Origin: Candidatus Peregrinibacteria bacterium
GTDB lineage: Bacteria > Patescibacteriota > Gracilibacteria > UM-FILTER-43-11 > JACRIE01
Reading direction: 5' to 3'
Length of the DNA: 64,000 bases
Assembly: GCA_016220165.1 (NCBI GenBank)
Contig: JACRIE010000040.1
Coordinates: forward strand, 16,364-80,363
In this document: piece by piece, positions 2,263 to 60,847 of the stretch
Numbering within the stretch: the stretch's first letter is position 1
How the letters are laid out: every line of letters begins with the position of its first letter
Program-made: the position numbers and the translations under genes
The notes under the pieces: generated by a model
Told to the model about the DNA's origin: nothing
Databases searched by the model: none
The model's input: the letters and a program-made list of their open reading frames with translations, nothing else

Positions 2263-5200
2263 TCAGCGGATCTCTTGGAAAAATTGCTGTTCGGAAGCCG
2301 CGCTAAAACCAGGAGGGGGATTAATTGTAATACGACGATCGTCTTTTTGTATAAAGAAGGGATCCAAAGTCGACTTTTCAAGAGAAATCGTTTCTTTAAT
2401 GCCATCCGCGTCTGTATCGACCAAAGAGATCACCGTCGGAAGACTTCCTAAAGTGCAAACGCCTTGGGAGTCACAACTGCCGCCTCCGCTGAATTTTCCG
2501 TTTCCCGCCACTTTATTCTCGGAAACAGTGAAGCGTCGCAGATAATCAAGATCATAACGTTGGGCGCAATTAAGCTGACTGATATTCGGACATGATTTTC
2601 CGGCAGGCGACTGAAGGCTGACCGCGCCGCCGATGGTATTTTTAGAAGCGATACTTCCCTGCCAAAGCAATTGATTATTGAGCAACTGAGGATTTGCGCC
2701 TCCATAGAAATATGGATAGCCGGAGACCGTAGTATCATCAACATAACTCATCAAACTTCCCTCGGCGTATACAGCGCCGACCATATTCGTAAGATTGGGA
2801 TCGATAAAGAGATTGCCGCCTTCGTCCTTCTCATCTGTCAGAAGAATAATCCCAAAAGAAGAGGAATCGTTGCCGTAAACGAAGTTATTTTTAATATAAA
2901 GATTCGCGCCTCCTTTAATAATAATTGTATAACGCTTTCCATCAGGAACTTTAATGGCATCAGAGGGGTTATCTCCCATTAACGTCAGCTTTTGGTCAGA
3001 AGTTCCTTCATAAAAAGCAATAACCGACGTCTCGTCAGCGTCTATTTTAATACAAGAACCGATTAGGGGAAGCGTCGCGCCGGACAATAGGGAAGAAACG
3101 GAACAGGAAGATAAATTTTGAGTTAAACTAGCCACATTCTTTCGCATGAGGGTCGTAAAATCTTTCGTATCGATTCCCTCAATCCCTTTAATTGCTTTTG
3201 ATTGAAGATCGGGTTGATAAATAGAATTTCCGGCGCCGATTCCTGTATATTCGACACCGATATCTTTAAGGGAAATACCGGGAAGGAGTGGCGTTTTATA
3301 AATAGTAAATTCCGGTTGGTTTTGGAAATGATAAGCAACGTAAGCGTCAATCCCGAAAGAAACATTGGAAATACCGACCGGAAGGATTTTTTCAGCGGTA
3401 AAATCAATCGCCTGAGGAGACAGAGGGGCAAGAATCTTACCCGTAACTGTATCAGGAACGGAAGGAATAAAATCCAATGAACTATTTGAATCGCTACGAT
3501 CGATCAATCCATCGTGCGTGCAGTTTCCCGTGATGGAATCTCTCGGATATTCTTTAGGGATACCAAAATCACAGGAAATCAAGTAGGTACCATCATCTCG
3601 CAAAGAAGTCGAAACTCCCTGATCATATTGTAAGGAAAGCGCAAACGCATTTCTAAAAATAGAGTTAATGCCTGAAAAAGTTGCGCCAGATTGTGAAACT
3701 CCATTATAAAATTCATAACGAGTTTCTCCTTCGAGCGGATCAGACCAGCCAAGATTATCTTCGGAAGAGGACTGACTTTGTATTTTTTGGATTTGCAGGA
3801 AAAGACTATCGCGATTCTCTAAGTTGAACACATGATCAATATCAACATCTTGCAGCAGTTGAGTGCTTAAAGATTTAGCCTGATAAGAAAATTTCGCGGG
3901 AACTCCGATGGTGATCTGATTTTCAATGCCCCCGCTGCTAAGAAGCGGATTCTCAAGAACAAGCGCTGGAATAAAAGAAAACTCCTGAGGAAAATTAACC
4001 GTAATAGGCTGGGCGGCCAGCGAATCAGAAATTTCGATAGAATTTAATTTTAATTTATAAGTATCAACCGTGGGAGCGAAAGAAGTGAATTCCATTCGAT
4101 ACGTTCCAGGCAATAGCGGCGCCGGAGAAAATAGCGAAGGGGCGCCAACCGGAAGATTATTGTTGGGGACAATATCCTTGATACGAACAGGTTGATAAGG
4201 AGAAAGATCAAAAGAAGTTGAATTAAAACGCATGGAGTTATCGAAAGAAGCCGAAAGCGCTACACTCCTTCCCGGACTTCCTGCGTAAGCACGATTAGAA
4301 TTAATAGTAATAATGGGGTTTCCCGCGATATCCTGAAGAGGGAAATTCATAACCGCTGCATCATAACCGTCAGCCATAATTTTATCCGTGTGTCTAAAAG
4401 CCGCTGCAGGAGCGGGACGGAAATAGTCGCCCGCACGCACATAAAAATTCAATGGATTTAAGTGAGGAGTGGTCGGCGAAACAGAGCTGGGTAGCTGTAA
4501 AGCTAGATAATATCGCATGCCGGCGTTATTGGTAATCACCCCGGACAAAGTGTACGAACAAAAACCATAAGGAACTCCTATGATAGAACCGGCTCCTAAA
4601 ATCGATAAATCGATATTGCCATTAGCCGCTGTAACCGCTTTGACCGTTGCAGAGGGGTTATTACAGGCAGGAAGAGACGTTCTTAGTGAAAAATTAGTTT
4701 CAGTAAGTCGGATGCCTGATTCTGGATCAGAAGCAAAATTAGCCCACGTCAAAGCCCCTGTGATGCTATTGACCCCAAACCATGTTTTATCGGTTGCGTT
4801 AAGAATCGGAGGGGAAACATCCGGATACCAATTCGCATAAACGGAAAAATCCGGGAGATCGTCATCTATTGATTCTTTATTAAATTTTATCCATCCTAAT
4901 TTTTGATTCCATGCATAGCCTCGGAGACGATAACCTAGTGTCTCGCCGTTCGTGCCATAAACAGGGGGACCTCCGAAATCAAGATAAACCCCCCACGTGG
5001 TTTGACTTTGCTCAATAACTGAAATTCGGCCAACAGGAAGCGAATCAAAACCAGGATTGCTGAGTCCGATCCATCCCGCCGCGTCGCTCCACGCGTATCC
5101 GATCAGAGCTCCATTTGCCGCGGAAAGACGAGCGTAATTAACTGAAGTAAATCCGCGGACGCGTAAAGTATCTTTAATAAAATTTCCATCGAGAGCAATC

Positions 5201-5430
5201 CATCCTAAGGCGCTGCTCCAGATAAAACCTTTCAAAAAACACCCTTTGGAATCGCACTGGTCAGACACTCTCGGCTGAAATTCAGGATCTAAACTGAGAC
5301 TAAACTCAAAATCGCCCGCTAATTTATTTTTAGCGGTTCCGTTAATCGTGGAATCCGCCAAGCTAAAAGGCGAAAAAAGACCCCAAAAAATGATTACTAA
5401 AACAAAAAAAATGAATTTCCTTTTGGTCAT
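2263..5430 (-). CDS. large secreted protein of unknown function with N-terminal G[YF]xW....GWI repeats
   Basis: 1055-aa ORF with a signal peptide (MTKRKFIFFVLVIIFWGLFSPFSLADS). Three repeats are present: GFIWSSALGWIAL, GYAWSDAAGWIGL and GYAWNQKLGWIKF. Its ATG overlaps the upstream stop (ATGA at 5427-5430). Confidence 0.8.
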   Translation of the reverse strand: MTKRKFIFFVLVIIFWGLFSPFSLADSTINGTAKNKLAGDFEFSLSLDPEFQPRVSDQCDSKGCFLKGFIWSSALGWIALDGNFIKDTLRVRGFTSVNYARLSAANGALIGYAWSDAAGWIGLSNPGFDSLPVGRISVIEQSQTTWGVYLDFGGPPVYGTNGETLGYRLRGYAWNQKLGWIKFNKESIDDDLPDFSVYANWYPDVSPPILNATDKTWFGVNSITGALTWANFASDPESGIRLTETNFSLRTSLPACNNPSATVKAVTAANGNIDLSILGAGSIIGVPYGFCSYTLSGVITNNAGMRYYLALQLPSSVSPTTPHLNPLNFYVRAGDYFRPAPAAAFRHTDKIMADGYDAAVMNFPLQDIAGNPIITINSNRAYAGSPGRSVALSASFDNSMRFNSTSFDLSPYQPVRIKDIVPNNNLPVGAPSLFSPAPLLPGTYRMEFTSFAPTVDTYKLKLNSIEISDSLAAQPITVNFPQEFSFIPALVLENPLLSSGGIENQITIGVPAKFSYQAKSLSTQLLQDVDIDHVFNLENRDSLFLQIQKIQSQSSSEDNLGWSDPLEGETRYEFYNGVSQSGATFSGINSIFRNAFALSLQYDQGVSTSLRDDGTYLISCDFGIPKEYPRDSITGNCTHDGLIDRSDSNSSLDFIPSVPDTVTGKILAPLSPQAIDFTAEKILPVGISNVSFGIDAYVAYHFQNQPEFTIYKTPLLPGISLKDIGVEYTGIGAGNSIYQPDLQSKAIKGIEGIDTKDFTTLMRKNVASLTQNLSSCSVSSLLSGATLPLIGSCIKIDADETSVIAFYEGTSDQKLTLMGDNPSDAIKVPDGKRYTIIIKGGANLYIKNNFVYGNDSSSFGIILLTDEKDEGGNLFIDPNLTNMVGAVYAEGSLMSYVDDTTVSGYPYFYGGANPQLLNNQLLWQGSIASKNTIGGAVSLQSPAGKSCPNISQLNCAQRYDLDYLRRFTVSENKVAGNGKFSGGGSCDSQGVCTLGSLPTVISLVDTDADGIKETISLEKSTLDPFFIQKDDRRITINPPPGFSAASEQQFFQEIR

Positions 5431-7847: not shown

Positions 7848-9509
7848 ATGTTCGCCCAAATCGTTCCATTGGTTCGCGCCGGTAGGTATTTAGCTCCGAC
7901 ATTAACCTATCGCTTTCCTGCGGAGGCGTTAGCCGATCTTTTCGTCGGTTCACTGATCCGGGTTCCGCTGCGAAATCAAAAGGCGACAGGCGTGATCATT
8001 GAGATTCTTTCTGAAAATACAACCGATCTCTCTGATTCAAAAATCAAAACGGTTGATCCGTTCACGCCCTCCGTTCAATTTTCACCGCTCCAAATGGAAT
8101 GGGTGGCGTGGATTCAAAAAACCTATCATGCAACGCCTTCTCAGGCGTGGCGGCTCATGGTGCCCGTTGCTCTTCAAAAAGCCAGAAAAACGAGAACGCC
8201 CAGCCCGTTTCAGGGCGTGATTCAGAATTCCCCTGAAGGCGAAGATCATGATCTTCGCCTTCAGGGGAATTTCCGGAAACCGACCGTGCTCCAGTCGCTT
8301 CCCGGAGTCAGACCATTGGAGTATTTTAAAAAAATCGTTAAAAAAACGATTGAGGAAGGGCGTCAGGCCTTATGGCTAGTCCCGGAAAAAAGCGCGATTC
8401 CTCTGGCCATAGATTGTTTTAAAAAGTCACTGGGTGACCGGATCGCAATTTTTCATTCCGGCCTGACGGAAGCGGAAGAGGGGAGGGAATGGTGGAAAAT
8501 TTATTCTGGCCATGCGTCACTCGTTGTCGGAACGCGCTCCGCTTTGTTCGCCCCCATCCGCCATTTGGGGTGCGTGCTGATCGAGGATGAACACGCGTGG
8601 ACCTATCAGGAAGAACAGGCGCCTTATTATAACGCCCCCACGGCCGCGGCGGCTCTGGCCGAACTTCACAAGGCCCGTCTGGTCTTGAGCAGCGCGACCC
8701 CACGGGCCGAAAGTTTTTATAAAACGGCCGTGACAAAGGAATGGGAATGGGTGTCTGTAGGGACAAGGCATGCCTTGTCCCTACAGACACCGAAAATCCA
8801 TGTCGTAGACATGCGCGAAGAATTGCAAAAACGGAACTTCGGCATTTTTTCCATGCCCCTCCAAAAAAAACTGAGCGAATGTCTTGAGCAAAAAGAGCAG
8901 GCGATCCTTTTCGTGAACCTGAGAGGGGTGGCAGGGGCGATCCTTTGCCGCGATTGCGGCGCGGGGGTGCGATGCCCGAAATGCGATATTTCGCTCACGC
9001 ATCATCGGGATAAAGGGGGCATTCTTTTATGCCATCAATGCGGATATACGGAACCGCTCCCCGCGCTTTGCCCGCGCTGCCGTTCGCCGCGCATCAAAAG
9101 CGTGGGGCTTGGCACGGAACGCGTGGAGCAGGAGGCGAAAAAACTTTTTCCTTCGGCCCGCGTCCTTCGCGTGGATCAAGACACTTCTGAAGGCGAGAAT
9201 CCGCATCTTCTCCTTCAAGACTACGACATTCTGGTCGGCACCCAAAAAATAGCGGGAAGCAAACCCGTCGCGCTGGTCGGCATGGTGCTGGCCGATATCG
9301 GAATCCATGCTCCGGACTTCCGGAGCAGTGAGCGAACCTTCCAGCAGATCATGACCATGGCAGGACTATGCAAAAAATCGGGCGAGCTGATCGTACAGAC
9401 CTACGCCCCCGAACTTCCGGCGATCCGCTTCGCCGCGGAATACAGATATGAAGACTTTATGAATCAGGAATTGGAATTCCGCAAACAATGGAAACGTTCG
9501 CCGTATTAA
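7848..9509 (+). CDS. priA: primosomal protein N' (PriA) homologue lacking a Walker A motif
   Basis: Motifs: ALWLVPEKSAIPL, HSGLTEAEEGREWW, VVGTRSALFAP, IEDEH, LSSATP, the Cys4+Cys4 zinc region CRDCG..CPKCD..CHQCG..CPRCRS, GTERVEQE and PDFRSSERTFQQ. No GxxxxGK[ST] occurs anywhere in the ORF. Confidence 0.85.
   Translation: MFAQIVPLVRAGRYLAPTLTYRFPAEALADLFVGSLIRVPLRNQKATGVIIEILSENTTDLSDSKIKTVDPFTPSVQFSPLQMEWVAWIQKTYHATPSQAWRLMVPVALQKARKTRTPSPFQGVIQNSPEGEDHDLRLQGNFRKPTVLQSLPGVRPLEYFKKIVKKTIEEGRQALWLVPEKSAIPLAIDCFKKSLGDRIAIFHSGLTEAEEGREWWKIYSGHASLVVGTRSALFAPIRHLGCVLIEDEHAWTYQEEQAPYYNAPTAAAALAELHKARLVLSSATPRAESFYKTAVTKEWEWVSVGTRHALSLQTPKIHVVDMREELQKRNFGIFSMPLQKKLSECLEQKEQAILFVNLRGVAGAILCRDCGAGVRCPKCDISLTHHRDKGGILLCHQCGYTEPLPALCPRCRSPRIKSVGLGTERVEQEAKKLFPSARVLRVDQDTSEGENPHLLLQDYDILVGTQKIAGSKPVALVGMVLADIGIHAPDFRSSERTFQQIMTMAGLCKKSGELIVQTYAPELPAIRFAAEYRYEDFMNQELEFRKQWKRSPY
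8227..8270. repeat. perfect 44-bp palindrome inside priA (hairpin repeat family, copy 1)
   Basis: attcccctgaaggcgaagatca / tgatcttcgccttcaggggaat, with the symmetry centre at 8248/8249. Translated in frame as NSPEGEDHDLRLQGN. Confidence 0.9.
9188..9217. repeat. degenerate hairpin-family copy inside priA (uncertain)
   Basis: tgaaggcgagaat-ccgc-atcttctccttca, with 10 of 13 arm positions complementary. Translated as SEGENPHLLLQ. Confidence 0.3.
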
Positions 9510-9515
9510 AACTTC

Positions 9516-12500
9516 TTATTTTTTGTCCTGGGTCGCGGTTTCCATAAAGGTAACCGTTTTTTGACTGATTTCAGGCGTTCCTTCGTTGAAAACTTCAAGG
9601 ATACGAAGGAGTTCGGTATTGGTTTTGCCGCCCATAATGGTGGCCGTGATTTTATCCATATTATCAAAAATCGTATTAAGATTGGCGAATCCTTTCTCTT
9701 TCGAATTTAGCAAACCGTTATTGGTGGCAAAATTATTGTAATGACTATCCAGATAACCGCAGATTCGTTGTACCAACGCATCCGGATCGGAAGTGGCGCT
9801 TCTGGTGTCCCGGATCATCTGAAAAAACGGAGCGTCGATCATGTCCTGAAAAGCCCGTATGCGTTCAAGATTTTTTTGAACATTCCAGTCGCCGTGATTG
9901 GTTTCGCTTGCTTCCCGCGCCGTCGCGTTAAGAATGCTGTTATTCATGCGTTTGTAAATCTGGGTGTCGCGATACGCCACGTTTCCCAGAATACCTTCCA
10001 TCATGGCCATAGAAGCCATATGCCGCGTAAAATTAGCGCGAAAATTCGTTGCATCGGGGTCACGCGCGTTTTCTTCCATGTACTGCAATGTCCCGACGAT
10101 CGTGTTTTCCACGGCTGTATCTTCACGGGCCTGTTCTCCTGATTTTCCGGACAGGAACTGTTTCATGGTGTTGGCGTCCCCCATGCATGAAATGGTGCGC
10201 GCCCAGTCATGATCCCATTTGCGCATAATGACGGCCTTTCGGACGCGCTGGGTCACCATGGAGTCATTCAGAACCTGGGTCCAGTAGAAATTTTTAAACT
10301 CGCCCCGGCATTTCCCGTCTTTGTAGTCCTCGCCGAATTGCTGCTGGCATGTTCTCTTATAATCTTCCCTGGTGAGCGGAGGACGCTTGTTATAAAACCA
10401 CTGGCTGGCCGGCCAGTTATTAAGATACGTGTCGTCCAAAGCCAAAGCGCGATCCTCTTCAAGCAGACCTGAGGCCGTGCCTACCATGAGATAAAACATA
10501 GCCGCTTCCGCGTAGGATTTTCCGTTGAGGATGGCGAATTCGATGGCGGCCTCGTATTCGGCCGGATCCACCTTGCCTCCGGCAACATGCTTTTTATAAA
10601 GCTCTTCCATGCGCCCTGTAAGAACGCTCGCCAATTTTTTGTAGGACTCCTGATATTCCTTCTTATGGCTTTCATAATGGCTTTCATTGGTGCGCTCCAG
10701 CGTGGTGTATTCATCATAATCCCAGATTTCACCCAAAGCCTTGTGGAGCTTGGTGCGGAGCAAATTGGGGGAAAGGGCCATGGAGGTGTCATTCGGATCC
10801 AGAAACACCTTATTCTGGAGGCGATTCAGCACTTTCCATAATTCAGGTTTAGACCAATTGATACGGCCTTTGTCGGCCAGAATCCTCAGGATCGCCTTCA
10901 ATTCATCTTTCTCCGGAGGCAGCGGATTCTCCGCCATACTCACGATTTGCTTTTCCAGATCCCAGGCATCCATATTTTCATACCGCCCCTTCCATTCGTT
11001 CACTTCCTCCTGCTCCGCTTTCTGCATGCGGGCTTTGGATTCCTGGCCCATACTGGTCCCTGCGAACAGCGCGGAGCCCAATTTCGCCGCATGATCCGCC
11101 TTGCGTCGCTTAAAACGGCGTTCCGTGAACTCGAAAAAATCTCTGCCGACCTGGAGGATGTCCTCGACGCACAGAAAGGAGGTTTTAAGCCATAATGCCG
11201 CGAAAGGGTTGAGTATTCCTTTGTCACTGGCGGACGACGCGGATTCCAGCTCCTTCATCACGGTTCCGAACGCGTGTTTTTCAAGAAGCCCGATCCGGCT
11301 TCCAACGGTTTTCCCCAATGCTTTATTTGAAGGATGTTCATCGTATTCTTCATTTATTTTCTCCGTTTCTTCCAGATAGGTAATCATGGTGCTGATCAGC
11401 GCCCCTATTCCGGGGATGCCTCCCGCGAAAGGGGAATGCGATGCCCCGTACAGGGCTTCCTTGAGCCTTTCAAGTTTTTGCCCAAACTCTTTGGCGGAAC
11501 TCGTTCCTTCATCAGTCTCTTTTGCTCCTGTTTCTTTTTCTTCTTCTTCTTCATCCTCTCCTGCGGCCACGGCGCCGGCAATGCTCGCTTTTTCCGAGTC
11601 CGCGATGATCTCCTCCGCCGTGCGCGTGTCGGACGGATTGAAAACTTCAATTCCGCCGATCGCGGAAAAGGCGGTCAGCAAATCGCGGTGCTTAGTATTC
11701 TTGCCCACCGGCATATCCTGCATGGCATAGAGCTCGCTGATGATTTCCCCGTCAGGCCACGTATAGGGCTCTGTGGCGTCCTTTCCCGCCGTGTGCGGCT
11801 TTTTAATGGCACCGATCTCAGCCATAAACCGATCGCGGACTTCCGGCCACTTCTTGTGTCCCAAAACAAGCGCGATGTATTCCCGCCTCTGCTGTTCCGG
11901 CATGCTGTCGAACTCCAGATGACGCATCTCATGGGTCAGATCCGTGCGGAAGGCGCGCGACTCTTCCTGCGTCCGGCTTTCTTCTTCTCCGTCTTTCGGT
12001 TTGCGGATAATGATTTTCCAAACGTGCCCTTTGGTATAAAACACCATGCCGCCATTCGTGTACTGACTATAATCGTCATTAAATTTTTTAAACGGCAAAC
12101 GCTCAACATGATCTTTAAAAAACGGGTCTTTCAGAAATTCATCCGGAGAAGTTTGTGAGTTTTTCAAAACATGGACCAGCCCTTGTACCTTTTGATAGCG
12201 GATATTTTTCTCAAATTCAGGATCTTTCCAGGCGCCGCTCACACGCTCCTCAAAACTTCCCACCGCGTCAAACGTTTTTTTCAGTTGAGCCAATCCGTTC
12301 GTCAGCTCAAGCCGCTGAAGCCGCGTCAGGGCGGCAGGATCGGCCAATAGGGCTTCAAATTCATCGAGCGAACGCTGAGCGCTTCCATCGCGCAACTTTT
12401 GGATGGCTTCGCGCGCCAGCTCGGTGTGTCGCGGCGGATGATCGGGAACAGACACGCCTGTAAGTATCGCGGCTCTACGGGCTTTTTGTGATGGATTCCC

Positions 12501-13586
12501 CAAAGAAGCTTCTAAAAAATTCAAGGTTTCGGGCGTGATGGCGCCGAGCTCTTGCCGCAAAGCAATGATGGACTTTCTGGCTTCGGCAGCTTGTTCGTCT
12601 CCATGAGCGACGGATTCATATAAATCTTTGCCCATATCATGAATATTCCTTTGAATAGTCACGAAGTCTCGAAGAAGTGTCCTATAGGTTTTGGGATCCG
12701 TCCGCGCCTCAGGATCCATAAACTGCCTCTCCATCGCGTCACCCGTTTTTTCAAAACGCCGCTCCGCCTCCCCGCGTTCCTCGGAATCCAGATTTTTAAG
12801 GAATTTTTGCGCCTCGGCATAAAGCGCCTCCTTCTTTTTTCGCAGATAGTCCTGAAGATGTCCGATCTGATACTGACGAATCTCCAGGGTTCGCGCTCGC
12901 TCACGCTCATAATCTTCCGGAATCTCCTCTCGCGCGTTCAAAACCAGATTTTTTCCGACGATCGCCCCTAGTTCTTCCCGAAAACCCCGACGCTGGTTGC
13001 CAACCTCAATGCGATCATTCGAGGGAAGACCGGTCTCCAGGGAATTAATATACGTATTGAGAGAACGAAGCTGATCCATTCGTCCTTCCATATCCTGATC
13101 CGTCGTAATAGGCTGACGAAGGGCTTCCAGCTCATTCAATTCCTGCTGAAACTCCCGCCGTTTTGTCAAATCCAGTTCGCCCTGCAAACGCGCCTGCAGA
13201 CCTACAACCTCGCGGCCGATAATGTCCGTGGGCGCGCCGATATCGGCGCGCGGCTGAAAGGGGATGCCCTTTCCAGCTCTTTTCTGTATTTGCTCATCGA
13301 TTTCCCCAAAATTCGCACCGTTTTCAACAAGATACTCCCGTTCCTTCTGCAATTCTTCCAGAAGGCTCCTCTGCACTTCGGACAATTTCTCCCGCAATGC
13401 CTTCCCCAGGCGTATGTCGCTCTCTCGTTCGATCTGCACAACCAAATCTGCCTCTTCTCTTTCAAGCGAAGCCCTGGCGCCACGAACCATATCAATACCC
13501 CTTTTGGAATCCTTTAAAAACGCGAAAAATTCGCCGAGAAAAGGATTTTTTTCATACAACCCGTGGCAGAAACATTTTAAGTACAT
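9516..13586 (-). CDS. 1356-aa protein of unknown function with a coiled-coil-rich N-terminus, an HExxH motif and an acidic tract
   Basis: Single uninterrupted ORF with no signal peptide. HEMRH occurs in TDLTHEMRHLEFDS, and an acidic run in GEDEEEEEKETGAKETDEG. No P-loop. The conserved leader hairpin sits immediately upstream. Confidence 0.8.
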   Translation of the reverse strand: MYLKCFCHGLYEKNPFLGEFFAFLKDSKRGIDMVRGARASLEREEADLVVQIERESDIRLGKALREKLSEVQRSLLEELQKEREYLVENGANFGEIDEQIQKRAGKGIPFQPRADIGAPTDIIGREVVGLQARLQGELDLTKRREFQQELNELEALRQPITTDQDMEGRMDQLRSLNTYINSLETGLPSNDRIEVGNQRRGFREELGAIVGKNLVLNAREEIPEDYERERARTLEIRQYQIGHLQDYLRKKKEALYAEAQKFLKNLDSEERGEAERRFEKTGDAMERQFMDPEARTDPKTYRTLLRDFVTIQRNIHDMGKDLYESVAHGDEQAAEARKSIIALRQELGAITPETLNFLEASLGNPSQKARRAAILTGVSVPDHPPRHTELAREAIQKLRDGSAQRSLDEFEALLADPAALTRLQRLELTNGLAQLKKTFDAVGSFEERVSGAWKDPEFEKNIRYQKVQGLVHVLKNSQTSPDEFLKDPFFKDHVERLPFKKFNDDYSQYTNGGMVFYTKGHVWKIIIRKPKDGEEESRTQEESRAFRTDLTHEMRHLEFDSMPEQQRREYIALVLGHKKWPEVRDRFMAEIGAIKKPHTAGKDATEPYTWPDGEIISELYAMQDMPVGKNTKHRDLLTAFSAIGGIEVFNPSDTRTAEEIIADSEKASIAGAVAAGEDEEEEEKETGAKETDEGTSSAKEFGQKLERLKEALYGASHSPFAGGIPGIGALISTMITYLEETEKINEEYDEHPSNKALGKTVGSRIGLLEKHAFGTVMKELESASSASDKGILNPFAALWLKTSFLCVEDILQVGRDFFEFTERRFKRRKADHAAKLGSALFAGTSMGQESKARMQKAEQEEVNEWKGRYENMDAWDLEKQIVSMAENPLPPEKDELKAILRILADKGRINWSKPELWKVLNRLQNKVFLDPNDTSMALSPNLLRTKLHKALGEIWDYDEYTTLERTNESHYESHKKEYQESYKKLASVLTGRMEELYKKHVAGGKVDPAEYEAAIEFAILNGKSYAEAAMFYLMVGTASGLLEEDRALALDDTYLNNWPASQWFYNKRPPLTREDYKRTCQQQFGEDYKDGKCRGEFKNFYWTQVLNDSMVTQRVRKAVIMRKWDHDWARTISCMGDANTMKQFLSGKSGEQAREDTAVENTIVGTLQYMEENARDPDATNFRANFTRHMASMAMMEGILGNVAYRDTQIYKRMNNSILNATAREASETNHGDWNVQKNLERIRAFQDMIDAPFFQMIRDTRSATSDPDALVQRICGYLDSHYNNFATNNGLLNSKEKGFANLNTIFDNMDKITATIMGGKTNTELLRILEVFNEGTPEISQKTVTFMETATQDKK

Positions 13587-17971: not shown

Positions 17972-20125
17972 CTAGTCTCCGCTATACGTCACCCAATTAT
18001 TCAACTCGATCATCTTCATTCGATAAATAGTTTCAGCCACTTCGGCGCGGGTCATGCCTTTCGCGGGCTCCAGGCGAGGATTATGATCCTCGCCTTCAGT
18101 AAGTGGCATCACGTTTTTCTTGTTGGCAAGAAATGCGTAGGACGCGAACCATGAATCCGTTGGGACATCTTCATAAGGCTTTACCTCTGGAGGAGCGGAA
18201 TCCATATTGTTCGTCTTAAAAAGGATTTTCAGGTATTCCGCCCGGGTCACGATTTGTGACGGTCGGAACGTGCCGTCGGCGTAGCCTCCGACAATATTCT
18301 TTTGAAGTGCCGTTGCCAAAAAAGACGCGTACCAATCGTTATTATTCGTATCCTTGAAATTCAAAGAGGCTCCCTTTTGGGCTTCAATATTAAAAGCAAG
18401 CATCAGCATCTTAAGGGCTTCGGCGCGATTCACGGTTTGATTGGGACGGAAACTTCCATCCGCGTATCCTCCTACGATTCCATTCTCTTTCAGAAATTTA
18501 ATCGATTTGAAATAGGGGTTCGTGGCGCTGATATCCACAAAAAGATTGCCGTTTTCACTGAAGAGTGGATTGCTTTCACCAATGAGCGCGCCGTTTTGCG
18601 CGCGAACCACAATCGTTTCGTCCGTCAGCGCAGTCATGAAAACAGACGCGGCTCCTTCCTTAAAATCTTTGAATTCCAATGCTTCCGGTTTAAAACGGGC
18701 TGAGCCTTGCTTGGCTGTCAATTGGATGATCCCTGTAAAATTATAAACGGGCGTCGGTTTTCCATTGGCGTCGATCGCCTTAATCACGAGCTCCTTGGGA
18801 ACCCCTTTAACGAAATGCCCGTCCTGCTCAATCTTAAAACCGGCAACCGGGTTCGCCTGCTCGATAAAGTTAACTTCATAAGCGCTTTTTCCGATCGTAA
18901 TCAAACTGCGGCCGAGCGTTTCACTGCGAACCGTGAATTGCGCCACGCGATTCACAAAATCGGACGATTTGAGATGTCGGTTACTCACGCGGGCGTCGCC
19001 TTCCACCTGGACATCGACCGTATCGTCAGACTTCCATTGTGAGACTTGATCCTTTTCATCCTCGATGTAGAGATTGATGCTACTCCCCAAAAGCGCGAAG
19101 TGTTCTCCGGTAATTTTAAAAACCGAAAGGTCAAGGGGGTTCGCCGCTTCCACAACCGATGAAGGAGAGGCGATCGGACTGGATTCCGGAGCAGCTGGTT
19201 CCGGAGTCACGCCTTGAGGAGCCACGGTTGTTTCTGAAGGCACTTCCTCGGTAGAAGCAATGCCGGAATAAACGGATTTCAGATATTTATCGAGATAGGG
19301 GAAAGGATCGATCGTATTTCTTTCAGCATTGTCTTTTCCGAGTCCGGCGCTCACCGCGTCAAAAAAACTGAGGCCGGCCTTTTGAGCTTCGTTCCAGGTG
19401 AAAGGCCAATAAGGATGCCAGGGGGCTGAATCGCGGTCGATTTGAAAGTGCAGATGAGGGGTCGTAGCCGTCCCTGTTTTGCCGCTGCGGCCGATCATAT
19501 CGCCCTTTTTCACATTCTGCCCTTCAACGACATTGACATCGCTCATGTGGGCATAAACGGAATAAAGAACAGCGGTCTGCCCGGGATAATCCGGATCCGG
19601 CGTATCCGGGTGACGGACGACGATATGATGGCCGAAACCGCTTTCCTGTACAGTCGACTTAATCACGCGACCGTTGGCAATGGCATAAATAGGCGTTCCT
19701 TCCGGAAGTTTTAAATCAACGGCCAGATGGCTTCCCGAATATTCTTCATGGTTGTTGTTATAAGCCGCCATGTAAACCACGGCGTAAGTGATTTTACTGT
19801 TACGGATTCGATCGCTTTCAGGGTCTTTCCAAAGCAATTTACTGTCCGGATAGCGCAAATCGGAAAGCGTGTAAGGCGGCAGATCGATCAGCTGATTTTC
19901 AGGAATCTTTTGATACGTCGGCATAGCGCTGCCGGTGACAAGAAATTTATTCCAATCCGGCACTTTTTGAACCGGATACGTGGTGCCGTTAAAAGGCTGT
20001 GGCGGCTCTAAAAGCGTTGCGCGAAACCATTCACTCGTTTTCTCCCCATAATAAACAATCACCAAAAAAAACAAAGTTCCTGTGATGAGTCCTGCGTATT
20101 TAAGGAGTTTTTTGTTTTTGAACAT
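17972..20125 (-). CDS. M23 family metallopeptidase with three C-terminal SLH domains
   Basis: M23 motifs: HLAVDLK..GTPIYAIANGRV, GHHIVVRH, YAHMSDV and GKTGTATTPHLHFQI. SLH repeats: ATNPYFKSIKFLKENGIVGGYADGSFRPNQTVNRAEAL, then two more. Started at MFKNKKLL (20125) so that it does not overlap recF. Confidence 0.85.
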   Translation of the reverse strand: MFKNKKLLKYAGLITGTLFFLVIVYYGEKTSEWFRATLLEPPQPFNGTTYPVQKVPDWNKFLVTGSAMPTYQKIPENQLIDLPPYTLSDLRYPDSKLLWKDPESDRIRNSKITYAVVYMAAYNNNHEEYSGSHLAVDLKLPEGTPIYAIANGRVIKSTVQESGFGHHIVVRHPDTPDPDYPGQTAVLYSVYAHMSDVNVVEGQNVKKGDMIGRSGKTGTATTPHLHFQIDRDSAPWHPYWPFTWNEAQKAGLSFFDAVSAGLGKDNAERNTIDPFPYLDKYLKSVYSGIASTEEVPSETTVAPQGVTPEPAAPESSPIASPSSVVEAANPLDLSVFKITGEHFALLGSSINLYIEDEKDQVSQWKSDDTVDVQVEGDARVSNRHLKSSDFVNRVAQFTVRSETLGRSLITIGKSAYEVNFIEQANPVAGFKIEQDGHFVKGVPKELVIKAIDANGKPTPVYNFTGIIQLTAKQGSARFKPEALEFKDFKEGAASVFMTALTDETIVVRAQNGALIGESNPLFSENGNLFVDISATNPYFKSIKFLKENGIVGGYADGSFRPNQTVNRAEALKMLMLAFNIEAQKGASLNFKDTNNNDWYASFLATALQKNIVGGYADGTFRPSQIVTRAEYLKILFKTNNMDSAPPEVKPYEDVPTDSWFASYAFLANKKNVMPLTEGEDHNPRLEPAKGMTRAEVAETIYRMKMIELNNWVTYSGD
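18070..18099. repeat. hairpin repeat family copy inside the M23/SLH peptidase gene
   Basis: ccAGGCGAGGAT-tatg-ATCCTCGCCTtcag. Read on the minus strand as TEGEDHNPRLEP. Confidence 0.8.
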
Positions 20126-20192
20126 AGTTGTTTTATACTCATCATGATTAATCTGAATATTATACCAATTTTTAAGCCAAAAATCAATCCTC

Positions 20193-21317
20193 ATGCGTCT
20201 TAAAACCCTGATCATTTCAGGATTTCGCAATCTGAAGCCTCTTAAACTCAATTTTTCAGACGAAAAAAACCTGAATGTCTTTATCGGAGCGAATGGACAG
20301 GGAAAAACTAATCTTTTGGAAGCAATTTACCTGTTGGCTTTCAGTAAATCGTTTCGAACCTCAGAGAATCAGGATTTGATCGGTTTCTCCGAAGACTTCT
20401 GCTCCGTGGAAGGGGAGTTCTCGGCAAAAACGAAAGAATCACCTGAAGGCGCGAATCGCGATTCGCGCCTTCAGGTGATTGTCACAAAAAATCCCCCGGA
20501 AAAAGGACTTAAAATCAACGGAGTCTCCAGTAGATCCGTAGACTTTATAGGACACCTTAAAGCGGTCTTTTTCAATCCGGATGACCTCGAGATGATCCAT
20601 GGCGCCCCTCGGCTCAGGCGACGATATCTGGATCTTCTTTTGCTTCAGCTGAACCATCGGTATCTCGTGGATCTAATGGACTACAACGCCTTAATAAAAC
20701 AACGCAATGCGCTGCTGCGTCAGATCAAGGCAGGGGAGAGTTCCGCCAACCATCTGAGCGTATGGGATGAAAAATGCGTGCCCCTGGGGTACAGCATCGT
20801 AAAACGGCGCCTGGAAGCCCTTTCTCAAATCAAAAAAAAGGTTCATCAATTTTACACTCAAATAAGTCAGACAAAAGAGGCAATCGATGTGGAATACCGA
20901 TTTTCCACAACGGATTTTCCGGCCAACGAACAGAAATTTGCCAGGATGATGCAGGATTCCCGGTCGCGGGACATTGAAATGCGTGCGACAACCATAGGAC
21001 CGCATCGCGACGATCTTCTATTCCTATTAGACAAAAAACCATTTCGAAATTTCGGTTCTCGCGGGCAATGGCGAAGTCTTGTATTGGCTTTAAAATTCAC
21101 GGAGATTGAATTGCTCCAGGAACAGTCAAAAACAGAACCGCTCCTCCTGCTGGACGATGTTTTTTCGGAGCTGGACGAATCGCACCAAAGACACCTCTTT
21201 GAAGCGGCCGTCGGAATTCAAACGCTGGTGACAACCACGCATGATTCCTTTTTGGACCTAATCAAGGACGAAAAATCAGTCTTTAAAGTTCAAAATGGGG
21301 CGATCACGATTCAATAG
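20193..21317 (+). CDS. recF: DNA replication and repair protein RecF
   Basis: MRLKTLIISGFRNLKPLKLNF...FIGANGQGKTNLLEAIYLLA (Walker A), GPHRDDL, GSRGQWRSLVLALK and LLLDDVFSELD. Confidence 0.92.
   Translation: MRLKTLIISGFRNLKPLKLNFSDEKNLNVFIGANGQGKTNLLEAIYLLAFSKSFRTSENQDLIGFSEDFCSVEGEFSAKTKESPEGANRDSRLQVIVTKNPPEKGLKINGVSSRSVDFIGHLKAVFFNPDDLEMIHGAPRLRRRYLDLLLLQLNHRYLVDLMDYNALIKQRNALLRQIKAGESSANHLSVWDEKCVPLGYSIVKRRLEALSQIKKKVHQFYTQISQTKEAIDVEYRFSTTDFPANEQKFARMMQDSRSRDIEMRATTIGPHRDDLLFLLDKKPFRNFGSRGQWRSLVLALKFTEIELLQEQSKTEPLLLLDDVFSELDESHQRHLFEAAVGIQTLVTTTHDSFLDLIKDEKSVFKVQNGAITIQ
20438..20477. repeat. perfect 40-bp palindrome inside recF (hairpin repeat family)
   Basis: tcacctgaaggcgcgaatcg / cgattcgcgccttcaggtga. 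Translated as SPEGANRDSRLQV. Confidence 0.9.
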
Positions 21318-23002: not shown

Positions 23003-25935
23003 ACGCCCAACAGCAAGCGGCAGTGCGGCACCGCAACGGACCTTTGCTCGTGGTCGCGGGAGCGGGCACAGGGAAAACAAGCGTGATCACGCATCGGATC
23101 GCTCATATTTTAAACGAGGGATGGTGCAGACACGACGAAATTCTGGCGCTCACGTTCACGGATAAAGCGACTCAGGAAATTGAGGAACGGGTCGATCAGC
23201 TCATGCCGCTGGGGTATGAAGCCATCACCATTCGGACCTTTCATGGTTTTTGCGACGATCTCTTGCGCGAATTTGGGATCGACATCGGCATCAATCCGAA
23301 TTTTCGGATCTTACAGGGAGTGGCGCACTGGCTATTCCTTAAAGAGCGCCTATTTGAATTCGATTTGGATTATTATCGTCCTTTGGGAAATCCAACCGCG
23401 TTTATTGACGCCTTCATTAAGGCGTTTGCGCGATTCAAAGAAGAATTAAATACGCCGGAAGACGCGCTGGCATTTGCCGAAAAGAAGACTGCCGAAGCCA
23501 AAACCGACGAAGAAAAAATAGAGGCCAAACGGCTTGTGGAATTGACTACGGCATACGGACGATATCAGGAATTGCTCACGGAAAACGATTGTCTGGATTT
23601 CGCGGATCTCCAAATAAAAACGCTGGAGCTATTCGAAAAACGACCCAATATCCTTGCCCATCTGCAAAAGCGGTATCGCTACATTCTTGTAGATGAATAT
23701 CAGGACACCAACATCGCGCAAAACACGATCGTGGATCGTTTAGTCGAAAAACACCGTAATCTGACCGTGGTGGGGGATGATGATCAGTCCATTTATAAAT
23801 TCCGCGGCGCGGCCATTTCAAATATCCTCCAATTCCAGGAGCGGTATCCCGACCTCACGAAAATCGTGCTCACGGAAAATTATCGCTCCGGCCAATCTAT
23901 CCTCGATTTCGCGTACGCGTCCATTCAGCACAACAATCCCGATCGCCTTGAGATCAAATCAGGCGTGGATAAACGCCTGAAAGGCCGGCGCCCCAGCACG
24001 CCGGATTCCATTCATTTAATTCACTCAACGACGCTGGACCAAGAGGTCGAAACCGTGATTTCGGAAATCCAGAATTTGGTAGGGACGTGCCACGGCACGT
24101 CCTCCCTAATATCCCTATCCGAAATCGCGGTGTTGTCTCGCACCAACGCTCAACTGCAGGCCTTTACCGAAGGATTCCAAAAGGCAGGCATTCCTTACAA
24201 TTTTATCTCAGAACGCGGACTCTATCGCAAAGAAGAAATCCGCGATCTCGTGACGCTCCTGCGCGTGCTCGCGAATCCAACGGACGACATCAGCTTCTAT
24301 CGCGTGCTACGGATGCCATTCTGGAAACTTTCCATGGAACTAATCATGACGCTCATCGCGGAAGGAAGTAAGAACTATAAAGGTATCTATCAGCAGATTA
24401 AAGCTAAAGAAGAATGTCGTCTTTTAAGCGATACCTTCCGCGATCTGCTGGAATTTTCAAAAAATCATACCGCTGGCGAAACGCTTTATCGGTTCACGGA
24501 AACCGTACAGCTGTATCAACAGCTATTGGCTCAGGGAACCATTGAAACGGAAGAGCAAATTCTGAATATCGCCACGTTTTTTAATAAAATCCGCGAATTT
24601 GAACAAAATTCGGAAAACAAAACAATACTCGACTTTGTGGAATATCTTGATCTGGCCGAAGAAGCCGGCGAGAACCCAGCGGCCAGTTTTGAACTTCAAA
24701 ATCGCGAGGGCGTTTTCATATCCACCGTGCACGGCGCCAAAGGACTGGAATTCCACACGGTTTTTTTGACGAATCTCACGAACGATCGCTTTCCCGGATC
24801 CCGTCGCGGCGATTCAATTGAAATTCCGGACGAATTCGTGCACGAAATTCTGACGCATTCGGACACGCATCTTCAGGAAGAACGGAGGCTTTTTTATGTC
24901 GCGGTCACGCGCGCCAAAGAACGCCTGTATTTGCTTCACAGCGACTTTTACGGTCAGAGCTTTTCAAAAAATCCGCGTAAGAAAAAACGCTCGCGCTTCA
25001 TCGACGAAATTTTCTCCCCTGAAGGCGAGGATCATAATCTTCGCCTTCATATCAACGCGATCGAAAAAACCGCGGAAGGAATTGGGCAATTCATAAAGCC
25101 CTCTTCAAAAAATTCCCCTGAAGGCGAGGATCCCCATCCTCGCCTGGACCAAGAGCCCCTTCGAACCATCACCCAATTCAGCTATTCCCAATTAATGCAA
25201 TTCCAAACGTGCCCGCGCCAATACGAATACCAATACGTGCTGAAAATCCCGCAGCCCATGAGCGCGAACTTGAGCTTTGGCTCCACCATGCATACGACCT
25301 TGCAGAAGTTTTACAAGCACGTCTTGCAGCAAAAACAAACATCGCTTTTTCAGGAATTTGAGCCAAAGACGTCTCTCGAAGAACTTCTGAAAATTTACGA
25401 CGAAAACTGGATCGCCCAGGGATACGAGAGTAAAGCCCACATAGAGGTTAGAAAAACCCGCGGTCGCGAAATTTTGACTCAATTCCACGAACATTTTAAA
25501 GAAGACGTGTCTCACGTCCGATTCTTGGAAAAAAGCTTCAAGCTCAAAATCGGAAACTACACGCTCAGCGGTCGCATCGACCGCGCGGATGATTTGCCGG
25601 ACGGAACCCTCGAAATCATCGACTACAAAACCGGTCGGACGCGCACGGAAAAAGAGGTGGAAAACGATCTTCAGCTCTTCCTCTATGCCATCGCGGCGCA
25701 CGACTGTTTTAGCCTTAAGGCCTCACGCCTGACGCTTTATTTCCTCGACGAAGACGTAAAAATTTCCACCGCGCCGGATGAGGCTAAATTCGAGCAAGTC
25801 AAACGCGACGTCTCGGACATCGCGGACGCCGTCAACCGCTCCGACTTCTCTCCGACCCCAAGCCAATTCAAATGCCGTCAATGCCCTTACAACAAAATCT
25901 GCGAATCTTCTTTAGGTTTTATGGTCTTCAGGTAG
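22990..25935 (+). CDS. UvrD/PcrA-type superfamily 1 helicase fused to a C-terminal PD-(D/E)xK (Cas4/AddB-like) nuclease domain
   Basis: GTG start. Helicase motifs: LNAQQQAAV, VAGAGTGKTSV, TFHGFC, ILVDEYQDTN, VVGDDDQSIYKFRGA, TENYRS, TVHGAKGLEF, YVAVTRAKERL and SRFIDEI. The C-terminus has CPRQYEY...IDRAD..IIDYKTG...CRQCPYNKIC. Confidence 0.88.
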   Translation: MHPLNAQQQAAVRHRNGPLLVVAGAGTGKTSVITHRIAHILNEGWCRHDEILALTFTDKATQEIEERVDQLMPLGYEAITIRTFHGFCDDLLREFGIDIGINPNFRILQGVAHWLFLKERLFEFDLDYYRPLGNPTAFIDAFIKAFARFKEELNTPEDALAFAEKKTAEAKTDEEKIEAKRLVELTTAYGRYQELLTENDCLDFADLQIKTLELFEKRPNILAHLQKRYRYILVDEYQDTNIAQNTIVDRLVEKHRNLTVVGDDDQSIYKFRGAAISNILQFQERYPDLTKIVLTENYRSGQSILDFAYASIQHNNPDRLEIKSGVDKRLKGRRPSTPDSIHLIHSTTLDQEVETVISEIQNLVGTCHGTSSLISLSEIAVLSRTNAQLQAFTEGFQKAGIPYNFISERGLYRKEEIRDLVTLLRVLANPTDDISFYRVLRMPFWKLSMELIMTLIAEGSKNYKGIYQQIKAKEECRLLSDTFRDLLEFSKNHTAGETLYRFTETVQLYQQLLAQGTIETEEQILNIATFFNKIREFEQNSENKTILDFVEYLDLAEEAGENPAASFELQNREGVFISTVHGAKGLEFHTVFLTNLTNDRFPGSRRGDSIEIPDEFVHEILTHSDTHLQEERRLFYVAVTRAKERLYLLHSDFYGQSFSKNPRKKKRSRFIDEIFSPEGEDHNLRLHINAIEKTAEGIGQFIKPSSKNSPEGEDPHPRLDQEPLRTITQFSYSQLMQFQTCPRQYEYQYVLKIPQPMSANLSFGSTMHTTLQKFYKHVLQQKQTSLFQEFEPKTSLEELLKIYDENWIAQGYESKAHIEVRKTRGREILTQFHEHFKEDVSHVRFLEKSFKLKIGNYTLSGRIDRADDLPDGTLEIIDYKTGRTRTEKEVENDLQLFLYAIAAHDCFSLKASRLTLYFLDEDVKISTAPDEAKFEQVKRDVSDIADAVNRSDFSPTPSQFKCRQCPYNKICESSLGFMVFR
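25019..25049. repeat. hairpin repeat family copy inside the helicase-nuclease gene (first of two)
   Basis: tgaaggcgaggat-cata-atcttcgccttca, with one G.T position. Translated as SPEGEDHNLRLH. Confidence 0.8.
25122..25145. repeat. hairpin repeat family copy inside the helicase-nuclease gene (second of two)
   Basis: AGGCGAGGAT-cccc-ATCCTCGCCT, preceded by cccctga. Translated as SPEGEDPHPRLD. Confidence 0.8.
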
Positions 25936-29835: not shown

Positions 29836-29848
29836 AAAGTCAAATTCA

Positions 29849-29986
29849 TTATCAAGAGTCCGCTGAGGGAACGGCCCTATGAAGCGGCAGCAACCGCCTT
29901 CTGAGGCGCCATGAACCGCCTGGTTCAGGGCCCTACAAGATGGCAAGGTGCTAACTCCGTCCTGCCTTAAGCGGGAAAGATAAGTT
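29849..29986 (+). promoter_or_regulatory. SAM-I (S-box) riboswitch aptamer
   Basis: TTATCAAGAG-tccgc-TGAGGGAacGGCCCtATGAAgcggCaGCAACC...(long P3 insert)...GGTGCTAActCC-gtcctgccttaagcggga-AAGATAAG. All conserved S-box blocks are present, and P1 is TTATC/GATAA. Confidence 0.85.
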
Positions 29987-46533: not shown

Positions 46534-46538
46534 AAAAT

Positions 46539-46570
46539 AAGAAGACGAGGATATATATCCTCGTCTTCTT
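46539..46570. terminator. bidirectional terminator hairpin, AT-shifted member of the hairpin repeat family
   Basis: aagaagacgaggatat / atatcctcgtcttctt, a perfect 32-bp palindrome between convergent mltG and the 688-aa gene, flanked by A-run and T-run. It differs from the 51511 copy by a compensatory G>A / C>T pair. Confidence 0.7.
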
Positions 46571-51510: not shown

Positions 51511-51548
51511 AAGATGAAGGCGAGGATATATATCCTCGCCTTCATCTT
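51511..51548. terminator. terminator hairpin after secA, member of the hairpin repeat family
   Basis: aagatgaaggcgaggatat / atatcctcgccttcatctt, a perfect 38-bp palindrome followed by tttttatt. ORF-track start 51514 for hrcA lies inside it and is rejected. Confidence 0.7.
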
Positions 51549-55051: not shown

Positions 55052-55139
55052 ATAAATCAAGTGACGAGTGACGAGAAAAAACTTGCAACTCGTTACTCGT
55101 CTCTATTAGTTCGTCACTGGTCACTCGTCACTAAGTAAA
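55052..55139 (+). promoter_or_regulatory. structured 5' leader, copy B of the duplicated promoter-leader module
   Basis: agtgacgagtgacgag-aaaaaacttgcaa-ctcgttactcgtctctattagttcgtcactggtcactcgtcactaagtaaa-ATG. Hairpin 55063-55075/55089-55101 (13 bp including one G.U) competes with the perfect 13-bp pairing 55060-55072/55120-55132. Confidence 0.7.
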
Positions 55140-60741: not shown

Positions 60742-60749
60742 TTTTCAAT

Positions 60750-60847
60750 TTCTAATTTCTAATATCTAATTTCTAAATAAATTCTTTTTTTCTTTTTTAT
60801 TCTTAAAATTTGGGGTTTTATTAGAAATTAGTAATTAGATATTAGGC
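60750..60847. repeat. inverted arrays of tandem heptamers (4 x TTCTAAT ... 4 x ATTAGnn) in the suhB-recR intergenic region
   Basis: 60750-60777 reads TTCTAAT TTCTAAT ATCTAAT TTCTAAA. A 42-nt T-rich spacer follows. 60820-60847 reads ATTAGAA ATTAGTA ATTAGAT ATTAGGC. Confidence 0.75.

Follow-up and report, generated by a model that had tools for sequence, protein, structure and literature searches.

A hairpin repeat family, probably of the REP type, in coding and intergenic DNA of a Candidatus Peregrinibacteria bacterium, and its link to RAYT genes in other genomes

The DNA considered here is a 64,000-nucleotide stretch (the window) from a Candidatus Peregrinibacteria bacterium (assembly GCA_016220165.1, contig JACRIE010000040.1, positions 16,364 to 80,363), in which a perfect palindrome lies inside the priA gene. 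We propose that this palindrome is probably a member of a hairpin family of the repetitive extragenic palindrome (REP) type, dispersed by a REP-associated tyrosine transposase (RAYT) that acts on single-stranded hairpins. The proposal is based on the recurrence of the hairpin in the window, on its presence both beside and inside RAYT genes of other genomes, and on the way in which it sits in host genes relative to their orthologues.

The family is defined by the core AGGCG-N14-CGCCT, which measures 24 nt, or eight codons, and usually takes the form GAAGGCGAGGAT-N4-ATCCTCGCCTTC. Beyond the core, the arms extend as a palindrome whose sequence is particular to each copy. With a covariance model trained on 50 members of the family, eight copies are found in the window, six of them intragenic and two intergenic. 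Seven score 36–49 bits (8232-8265, 18067-18100, 20442-20475, 25018-25051, 25117-25150, 46538-46571 and 51513-51546); the eighth, a degenerate copy at 9186-9219 that was outside the training set, scores 21.5 bits (E = 3e-4). The copies and the genes that host them are:

8226..8271, no strand assigned: perfect 46-bp palindrome with halves AATTCCCCTGAAGGCGAAGATCA/TGATCTTCGCCTTCAGGGGAATT, priA codons 127–141 (NSPEGEDHDLRLQGN); 45.3 bits; RNA fold −36.9 kcal/mol
9186..9219, no strand assigned: decayed copy in priA, codons 447–457 (SEGENPHLLLQ); 21.5 bits; RNA fold −8.7 kcal/mol
18067..18100 (core 18072-18095), minus strand: copy in the M23/SLH peptidase gene, codons 718–728 (TEGEDHNPRLE)
20437..20480, no strand assigned: perfect 44-bp palindrome, GAAGGCGCGAAT variant, in recF, codons 82–96 (ESPEGANRDSRLQVI); 44.3 bits
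25018..25051, plus strand: helicase-nuclease copy 1, codons 677–687 (PEGEDHNLRLH), between the UvrD_C and PD-(D/E)XK domains
25117..25150, plus strand: helicase-nuclease copy 2, in the same linker, codons 710–720 (PEGEDPHPRLD)
46539..46570, no strand assigned: intergenic perfect 32-bp palindrome, a GACG/CGTC compensated variant, between convergent yceG-like and FecR-domain genes
51511..51548, plus strand: intergenic perfect 38-bp palindrome between secA and hrcA, with a T tract behind it; 49.2 bits
7848..9509, plus strand: host gene priA, 553 aa, with PriA 3'BD and Cys-rich domains and three palindromes inside
17972..20251, minus strand: host gene of an M23 peptidase with SLH domains (domain scan), 759 aa
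20193..21317, plus strand: host gene recF, 374 aa
22990..25935, plus strand: host gene of a UvrD-type helicase fused to a PD-(D/E)XK nuclease, 981 aa, with two copies in the inter-domain linker

A preliminary description of this DNA, made from its letters alone, had given the priA palindrome as 44 bp at 8227-8270; it is exact over that length and extends by one further pair to 46 bp. All the related hairpins named there are present, including a possible further copy at 9188-9217, which corresponds to the degenerate one, and as an account of the sequence the description holds in all its details. The description had also presented them as a dispersed repeat family, and the covariance model, the motif counts and shuffled sequences bear this out. 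Thus, allowing up to one mismatch, CCTGAAGGCG matches the window 23 times with 3.9 expected and AGGCGAGGAT 18 times with 5.1 expected, a clear excess over chance, and the window contains six perfect hairpins whose arms measure 12 bp or more as against none across 60 dinucleotide-preserving shuffles. Pairing holds for 95.7% of the stem cells across the 50 copies, and 8 of the 13 pairs have changed on both sides, a level that none of 500 shuffles reached. The palindromes are 24–46 bp long, and are short stem-loops as REPs are; the seven intact copies fold at −17 to −37 kcal/mol. At eight copies per 64 kb here, and in multiple copies in at least ten other genomes, the family is also dispersed in the manner of REP/RAYT systems. 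Nothing singles out the priA copy as the type copy that it had been taken for.

The two intergenic copies had been described as terminator-type hairpins, and they do rank among the top terminator-like sites of the window: 51511-51548 is the first of all, and 46539-46570 is terminator-like in both directions. They are the only copies of the window that combine a G+C-rich hairpin, a T tract and a position at a gene 3' end; on the sense strand of the intragenic copies, a T tract is lacking. No direct target-site duplications flank the copies, and the unit, a palindrome of 24–46 bp, does not resemble miniature inverted-repeat transposable elements, which span 70–300 bp and carry terminal inverted repeats. 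At gathering score, Rfam has no family for the hairpin, its matches in the window being a SAM (S-adenosylmethionine) riboswitch and tRNA. A literal search of the literature for the core sequence returned primers and guide sequences as the sole matches, and a metagenome scan with a lineage-specific pattern gave just four non-palindromic chance matches in high-GC DNA, and so neither more of this genome nor any close relative of it. Viral contigs had no match to the core; a shuffled control palindrome had none either, so that this control is uninformative.

The family is not confined to this organism. Scanning 185,579 species genomes for AAGGCGARGAT-N4-ATCYTCGCCT yielded at least 107 loci, all chosen by this hairpin pattern and most of them from metagenome-assembled genomes (MAGs). 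Multi-copy families are seen, among the matches listed, in Peregrinibacteria (CP064978), Altimarinota, Spirochaetes (RBG_16_49_21), Ignavibacteriae and Sagan-, Falkow-, Buchanan-, Kerfeld- and Dojkabacteria. Perfect palindromes make up about half of the matches, with genome-typical centres such as ATAT, GATC and AATT, and the copies are mostly intergenic and terminator-like, the hairpin being preceded by an A tract and followed by a T tract. Single-copy matches with non-palindromic loops (Shewanella, Bordetella and others) are, judged by their sequence, probably chance terminators. For the multi-copy families this explanation was rejected, since about half of their matches are palindromic as against 1 in 16 of tetranucleotide centres.

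Support for a REP/RAYT assignment comes from the RAYT genes themselves. A RAYT is encoded at eight of the loci, and all eight are small HUH/Y1 proteins with the Pfam domain Y1_Tnp. The four that were scanned against NCBIfam NF047646 ('REP-associated tyrosine transposase') score 94–111 bits, above the cut-off of 80, and the one searched against PDB sequences, from locus L086, matches E. coli TnpA-REP (4ER8). Every one of the eight open reading frames (ORFs) contains a perfect family palindrome of 24–40 bp at one fixed position, which is preceded by ...LKRxxSxxIN and followed by (F)xWQxSFxDHxIR, separates the HUH half from the helix of the catalytic tyrosine, and corresponds to TnpA-REP residues 83–94. 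In this comparison the hairpin stems are 90% identical, the proteins 51% and the third codon positions 42%. The outer arms differ by copy and are nevertheless perfectly paired, including in orthologous RAYT copies, and half of the eight genes have a further copy beside them. Seven of the embedded copies are read in the EGED frame, L088 being a GAAGGCGCGATTG variant. The RAYT of L032 reads the hairpin in another frame (RRRGCASPPS), and therefore the constraint acts on the DNA. L032 and L088 are unbiased cases, because their in-ORF hairpins missed the search pattern and the loci were recovered through nearby copies. Two more distant plasmid RAYTs, used as an outgroup, have no internal palindrome of this kind; one of the two, a Chloroflexota gene, has inside it only a 7-bp AT-rich inverted repeat, together with classical flanking REPs. 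In a non-exhaustive search of the RAYT literature, no mention of REPs within RAYT genes was found; the embedded palindrome may be new. The RAYT gene at L083:346-1089 shows, in addition, a 38-codon tandem duplication that starts from the embedded hairpin and gives it two in-ORF copies.

Within the genes of the window, the hairpin is read in one frame. The preliminary description had pointed to such a bias, and all six intragenic copies of the window indeed read GAA GGC GAG GAT, giving (P)EGEDxxxRL. The second frame would read K-A-R-I..I-L-A-F, and the third contains TGA where the arm is CTGAAGG, so that the stop noted earlier holds for arms of that kind. As the core is exactly 24 nt, a core-sized unit never shifts the reading frame. 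In other genomes, copies deep within long ORFs read EGEDxxPRL, L077 being the sole, and doubtful, case of another frame. They include:

L059: IleRS-like ORF with two copies, identified from sequence reading rather than a Pfam scan
L082: AddB-like PD-(D/E)XK nuclease, with the copy immediately before the nuclease domain
L085: Mfd, intragenic copy
L044: TruB, intragenic copy
L102: uncharacterised ORF, intragenic copy

The intragenic hosts are recurrently nucleic-acid enzymes (PriA, RecF, UvrD/AddB-type helicase-nucleases, Mfd, TruB, the IleRS-like ORF and RAYT), for which targeting and tolerance are both conceivable.

Three of the intragenic copies can be recognised as insertions. The best protein matches of the host genes come from Candidatus Peregrinibacteria and other Patescibacteria (helicase-nuclease, 65% identity, in Candidatus Peregrinibacteria; RecF, 56%; PriA, 44–46%), and five loci of relatives (L112, L114, L115, L116 and L117) have the genes for the M23/SLH peptidase, RecF, an S1 protein, the helicase-nuclease and RmuC in this same order. 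Helicase copy 1 is a clean addition of eight codons (24 nt) relative to 18 orthologues of 59–66% identity and to all five syntenic loci. The recF copy adds eight codons relative to L115–L117, which have the modal orthologue loop, nine relative to L112 and four relative to L114, and the M23 copy adds five to six codons relative to the five syntenic orthologues. As these three copies are absent from the syntenic orthologues, they are lineage-specific insertions by sequence comparison; the orthologues are too distant to place the exact insertion boundary or target site. The earlier claim of in-frame insertion thus stands for these three copies; for the flagged priA palindrome simple insertion is unsupported, and helicase copy 2 is no recent arrival, as discussed below. 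The RecF model (pLDDT, predicted local distance difference test, of 85) places the palindrome residues in a loop between strands 69–77 and 91–98, with residues 84–88 below 50, and the palindrome peptides of both RecF and PriA fall in low-confidence, predicted loops, which agrees with the surface placement that modelling had been suggested to check. In-frame gain of +8, +8 and +5–6 codons (helicase copy 1, recF and M23) together with low-pLDDT loops is RPE-like behaviour, in the sense of the Rickettsia palindromic elements (RPEs) to which the family had first been compared. At L115:7888-7940, two AGGCG...CGCCT hairpins lie in tandem across the recF stop, GAAGGCGCGAAT-GATC-ATTtGCGCCT and then AGGCGAACAAT-CG-ATTGTTCGC.

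Such behaviour leads one to ask if the family is an orphan selfish palindrome of the RPE kind, colonising genes in frame with no dedicated transposase, in which case the RAYT copies would be further insertions into a tolerant loop. Ogata and co-workers, in 2000, reportedly described RPE palindromes in frame within essential genes, read in a hydrophilic frame and placed in surface loops. RPE-1 is about 100–150 bp long and specific to Rickettsia, and we know of no transposase linked to it. The present family shares with RPE-1 the in-frame insertion in essential genes, the hydrophilic frame, which is the same for all window copies, and the loop placement, and no transposase is found among the ORFs of the window. 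It differs from RPE-1 in having a 24-nt core within 24–46 bp, in occurring in many phyla, in its terminator role and in its link to RAYTs; neither its size nor its hosts are those of RPEs. Moreover, eight of eight RAYT genes carry the hairpin at the same position, far better conserved than its coding context, the two outgroup RAYTs are devoid of it, and the copies in other genomes are mostly intergenic. We consider an orphan palindrome unlikely. The family is RPE-like in the behaviors that the preliminary description listed, yet it is of the REP/RAYT kind and not an RPE. What stands from the original likening is the frame filter and the in-frame insertion of three copies; the right comparison is with REP/RAYT systems and with short REPs, among which are RPE-4 and RPE-6, and these CGTC-type REPs, in line with an orphan origin, have no known dedicated transposase (PMC3733652).

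Not every copy is a recent arrival, and helicase copy 2 is an old one. At the site of this copy, a hairpin is found at the same codons in the window and in L112, L115 and L116:

Window: GAAGGCGAGGAT-CCCC-ATCCTCGCCT
L116: GTAGGCGAGGAT-GATC-ATCCTCGCCT
L112: GAAAGCGCGGAT-TATC-ATCCGCGCCT, also written GCGCGGAT-TATC-ATCCGCGC
L115: CTGAAAGCGCGAAT-AGCC-ATTCGCaCTTTCAG

The differences among the four are compensated on both arms, and the cores of the window and L116 are identical despite 60% protein identity. Because the hairpin is shared at the same codons with compensated changes, we conclude from the alignments that copy 2 predates the split of lineages whose helicases are now about 60% identical, and that its pairing has been kept. 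At the corresponding site, L114 lacks a recognizable hairpin and L117 retains just a short stem of the outer arms, CCCTGAA-tcaag-TTCAGGG, both of which we interpret as decay of the same old copy. Orthologues encoding the same peptide by non-palindromic DNA had been named as the finding that would make it ancestral sequence; here, the orthologues use palindromic DNA.

An old, compensated hairpin might suggest a selected cis-acting structure, which at domain boundaries would make transcription or translation pause, would attenuate it, or would mark sites of RNA processing. Besides helicase copy 2 and the identical cores of the window and L116, the positions of copies where domains meet (PriA, the helicase-nuclease and the L082 nuclease), as well as the very stable stems, are in keeping with such a role. 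On the other hand, the priA copy at 9186 has decayed, the L114 helicase site is free of a hairpin and that of L117 retains the short outer-arm stem alone. Hosts and positions are otherwise unrelated, and linkers may simply tolerate inserts. In addition, mismatches occur on either strand, and the sense-strand G–U signature that was sought is inconsistent. This explanation, too, is improbable in our judgment.

The priA gene is more complicated. Relative to 12 PriA orthologues, the flagged copy at 8226-8271 brings no net gain in length, and simple insertion, as originally claimed for it, is unsupported; it occupies the place of a conserved LTxxQxxAL segment of the orthologues. Around 9186-9219, the PriA of the window is 6 aa shorter than the orthologues. 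A second-family palindrome lies between the two:

8750..8791, no strand assigned: perfect 42-bp palindrome GTAGGG...CCCTAC, in frame, priA codons 301–315

Its codons include the invariant R307 and P315, and the length is again unchanged relative to the orthologues. The GTAGGG...CCCTAC family has a GTAG foot mirrored on the other arm, its palindrome has no match in the viral contigs scanned, and its relatives are located at:

L074:6613-6640
L081:7950-7977
L076:1342-1369
L088:509-530
L112:1394-1421

The protein itself is degenerate. Walker A has changed from GVTGSGKTE to SLPGVRPLE, motif VI from AGRAGR to AGLC, GKGLDFP is shortened, and about 100 C-terminal residues (the C-terminal domain) are missing, although the 553-aa ORF is intact; by these motifs, the PriA of the window looks helicase-dead. 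Its nearest relative among 5.8 billion proteins is just 44–46% identical. In the model (pLDDT 71), the low-confidence coil segments 119–155, 283–312 and 445–454 coincide with the three palindromes, the flagged copy falling in 119–155 (pLDDT < 50), 8750-8791 in 283–312 and 9186-9219 in 445–454. Relaxed constraint, with insertion plus deletion or with local conversion, can account for the pattern as far as the sequence comparison goes.

The priA copies also invite the explanation that each palindrome was born in place without mobility, by template switching in replication that copied one flank in inverted orientation. The priA copies and 8750-8791 replace sequence rather than add to it, and conserved residues are kept; the recF outer arm (LQVI) aligns with the native LEVI strand; the outer arms vary by copy and still pair perfectly, even in orthologous RAYT copies; and template switching is an established route to perfect, extended inverted repeats. 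Indeed, it perfects imperfect repeats and extends the arms of quasi-palindromes (PMC7202029, PMC3820800), a likeness to the copy-specific paired outer arms seen here. It is, however, a mutational process and not an element, and it explains neither the shared core of 20–24 nt in unrelated genes of many phyla nor the clean eight-codon additions that bear this core. It fits better as a process that maintains or extends resident copies, and as the sole origin of the family we hold it to be very unlikely. An ancestral peptide motif EGEDxxPRL or a metagenome assembly artefact, to which the recurrence of the peptide in many proteins and the predominance of MAGs among the carrier records might point, is scarcely credible, given that the host proteins are unrelated and their ORFs intact, that L032 keeps the palindrome in a different frame, that the same hairpin recurs across independent studies, assemblers and the closed genome CP064978, and that orthologous sites are found in four separately assembled genomes.

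We therefore return to dispersal by a RAYT as the probable explanation. In outline, the HUH/Y1 enzyme would recognise the hairpin on single-stranded DNA and disperse copies. Those landing between genes would serve as intrinsic, often bidirectional, terminators; those landing within genes would persist only if they add a loop or linker that is tolerated and are read in the hydrophilic frame, (P)EGEDxxPRL. Perfectly paired, copy-specific outer arms and the compensated changes in the helicase suggest selection on the hairpin or hairpin-templated copying. By either route, the latter being template switching at quasi-palindromes, the arms of resident copies would stay or become complementary; as a result, old copies would keep their pairing by double substitutions and the perfect palindrome would grow into its flanks. 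We infer both this means of keeping the arms symmetrical and the existence in this genome of a RAYT that mobilised the window copies. A bolder extension, which we offer tentatively and to which we give less than even chances, is that a cross-phylum clade of RAYTs (of the HRNSQKR...DHVHLL...WQxSFxDHxIR type) has its own substrate hairpin built into the transposase gene as a perfect palindrome in frame, serving as a master copy, a self-regulatory site or both, and that the dispersed descendants are actively kept as hairpins, even in host genes for nucleic-acid enzymes, rather than being decaying junk.

Several observations weigh against dispersal by a RAYT. First, the 44 ORFs of the window include no RAYT and no other transposase; the preliminary description had suggested a look for a RAYT or an IS200/IS605-type TnpA, and RAYTs with the hairpin in their ORF were found in other hairpin-carrying genomes and not in these 64 kb. 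Second, intragenic copies prevail in the window (six of eight), in contrast to the usual, mostly extragenic distribution of REPs. Third, the hairpins are perfect and symmetrical, and their tetranucleotide is paired, whereas E. coli TnpA-REP requires a stem with a bulge and a GTAG that is unpaired. Fourth, neither the flagged priA copy nor 8750-8791 lengthens the gene, 8750-8791 includes the invariant R307 and P315, and simple insertion does not account for either palindrome. Fifth, the loci in other genomes, at least 107 in number, were selected by pattern and are mostly from MAGs, in which mis-binning is possible. Finally, no transposition intermediate, target site or within-species presence/absence polymorphism was seen.

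How the family compares with REP/REPIN and RAYT systems of E. coli, Pseudomonas and Stenotrophomonas can be stated more precisely. Like these, it consists of short, dispersed, multi-copy palindromes that, outside the window, are for the most part found immediately downstream of genes and between ORFs that are convergent or co-directional; the tetranucleotide at the hairpin foot ends in AG; and, in other genomes, there is physical linkage to a RAYT gene above the NCBIfam equivalog cut-off. For E. coli TnpA-REP, the hairpin and a 5' GTAG are both required, and the CT cleavage site is specified through pairing with A3 and G4 of this tetranucleotide (PMC3479197). In the present family the foot reads GAAG, or GTAG in L116 and L114, and is mirrored by CTTC on the other arm, with A3 and G4 kept; this paired tag differs from the one-ended, unpaired GTAG or CGTC of REPs. 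The stems are perfect in all eight RAYT copies and in most others, and the bulge of the E. coli hairpin is absent, a requirement known for E. coli only. Unlike in the classical systems, a copy lies in frame inside the RAYT ORF and not just in its flanks, and the hosts are the candidate phyla radiation (CPR)/Patescibacteria, Margulisiibacteriota and Ignavibacteriae.

Intragenic REPs have precedent. Di Nocera et al. (2013) describe GTAG/CGTC REPs in frame within genes, including GTAG-20 of Opitutus terrae and RPE-4 and RPE-6 of R. conorii, with hosts such as uvrA/B/D, recBCD, polA, dnaE, truB and tRNA synthetase genes (PMC3733652). The two sets are alike in consisting of single in-frame units of about 10 codons and in their classes of host, namely helicase-nucleases of the UvrD/Rec type, further genes of replication and repair, truB and tRNA synthetases. 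They differ in phyla and, as far as can be judged, in core sequence; a single frame and compensated orthologous conservation are shown for the present family.

Other features of the window deserve brief mention. Two strong hairpins score only about 13 bits by the family model, one at 53536-53565 (AGAAAACGCCTCC-TTTC-GGAGGCGTTTTCT) in the 3' region of a VIT1-family gene and one at 51332-51354 (CCCCGAAGGG-AGC-CCCTTCGGGG) in the 3' region of secA. The G+C content is 37–53% per 2-kb block, with a mean of 45.5%, and the G+C-rich hairpins are located in the G+C-richer part; the syntenic regions have 34–39% (L112, L115, L116) and 42–49% (L114, L117). The SAM riboswitch (RF00162, 69 bits, 29846-29986) lies upstream of methyltransferase, homocysteine S-methyltransferase and MetRS genes. 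An AT-rich inverted repeat of TAATTTC-like units occupies 60747-60850, between recR and an inositol monophosphatase gene, and a AGTGACGAGTGACGAG inverted repeat is found at 55060-55132, upstream of the ORF 55140-55640. For four large ORFs, 9516-13586, 2263-5430, 55655-57853 and 58129-60141 (1356, 1055, 732 and 670 aa), Pfam gives no match. The M23 peptidase gene and recF are divergent, and the starts of their longest ORFs overlap over 59 bp (20193-20251); the M23 start is probably further downstream.

That REPs occur in frame in replication and repair genes has been known since 2013 (PMC3733652). New are the host lineage, the cross-phylum frame filter, the compensated orthologous conservation and, perhaps, the RAYT-embedded palindrome. 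The findings extend REP/RAYT biology to the reduced genomes of the CPR and to several other uncultured phyla, with a stringent reading-frame filter that holds across phyla, and they provide an example in which a hairpin within a gene has been retained at the same orthologous site via compensating substitutions. For annotation, such repeats create eight-codon inserts and apparent losses of motifs, as in priA. The palindrome in the RAYT ORF suggests self-regulation or a master copy, and the 24-nt core would define a minimal single-stranded DNA substrate, as predicted here, for a small HUH enzyme.

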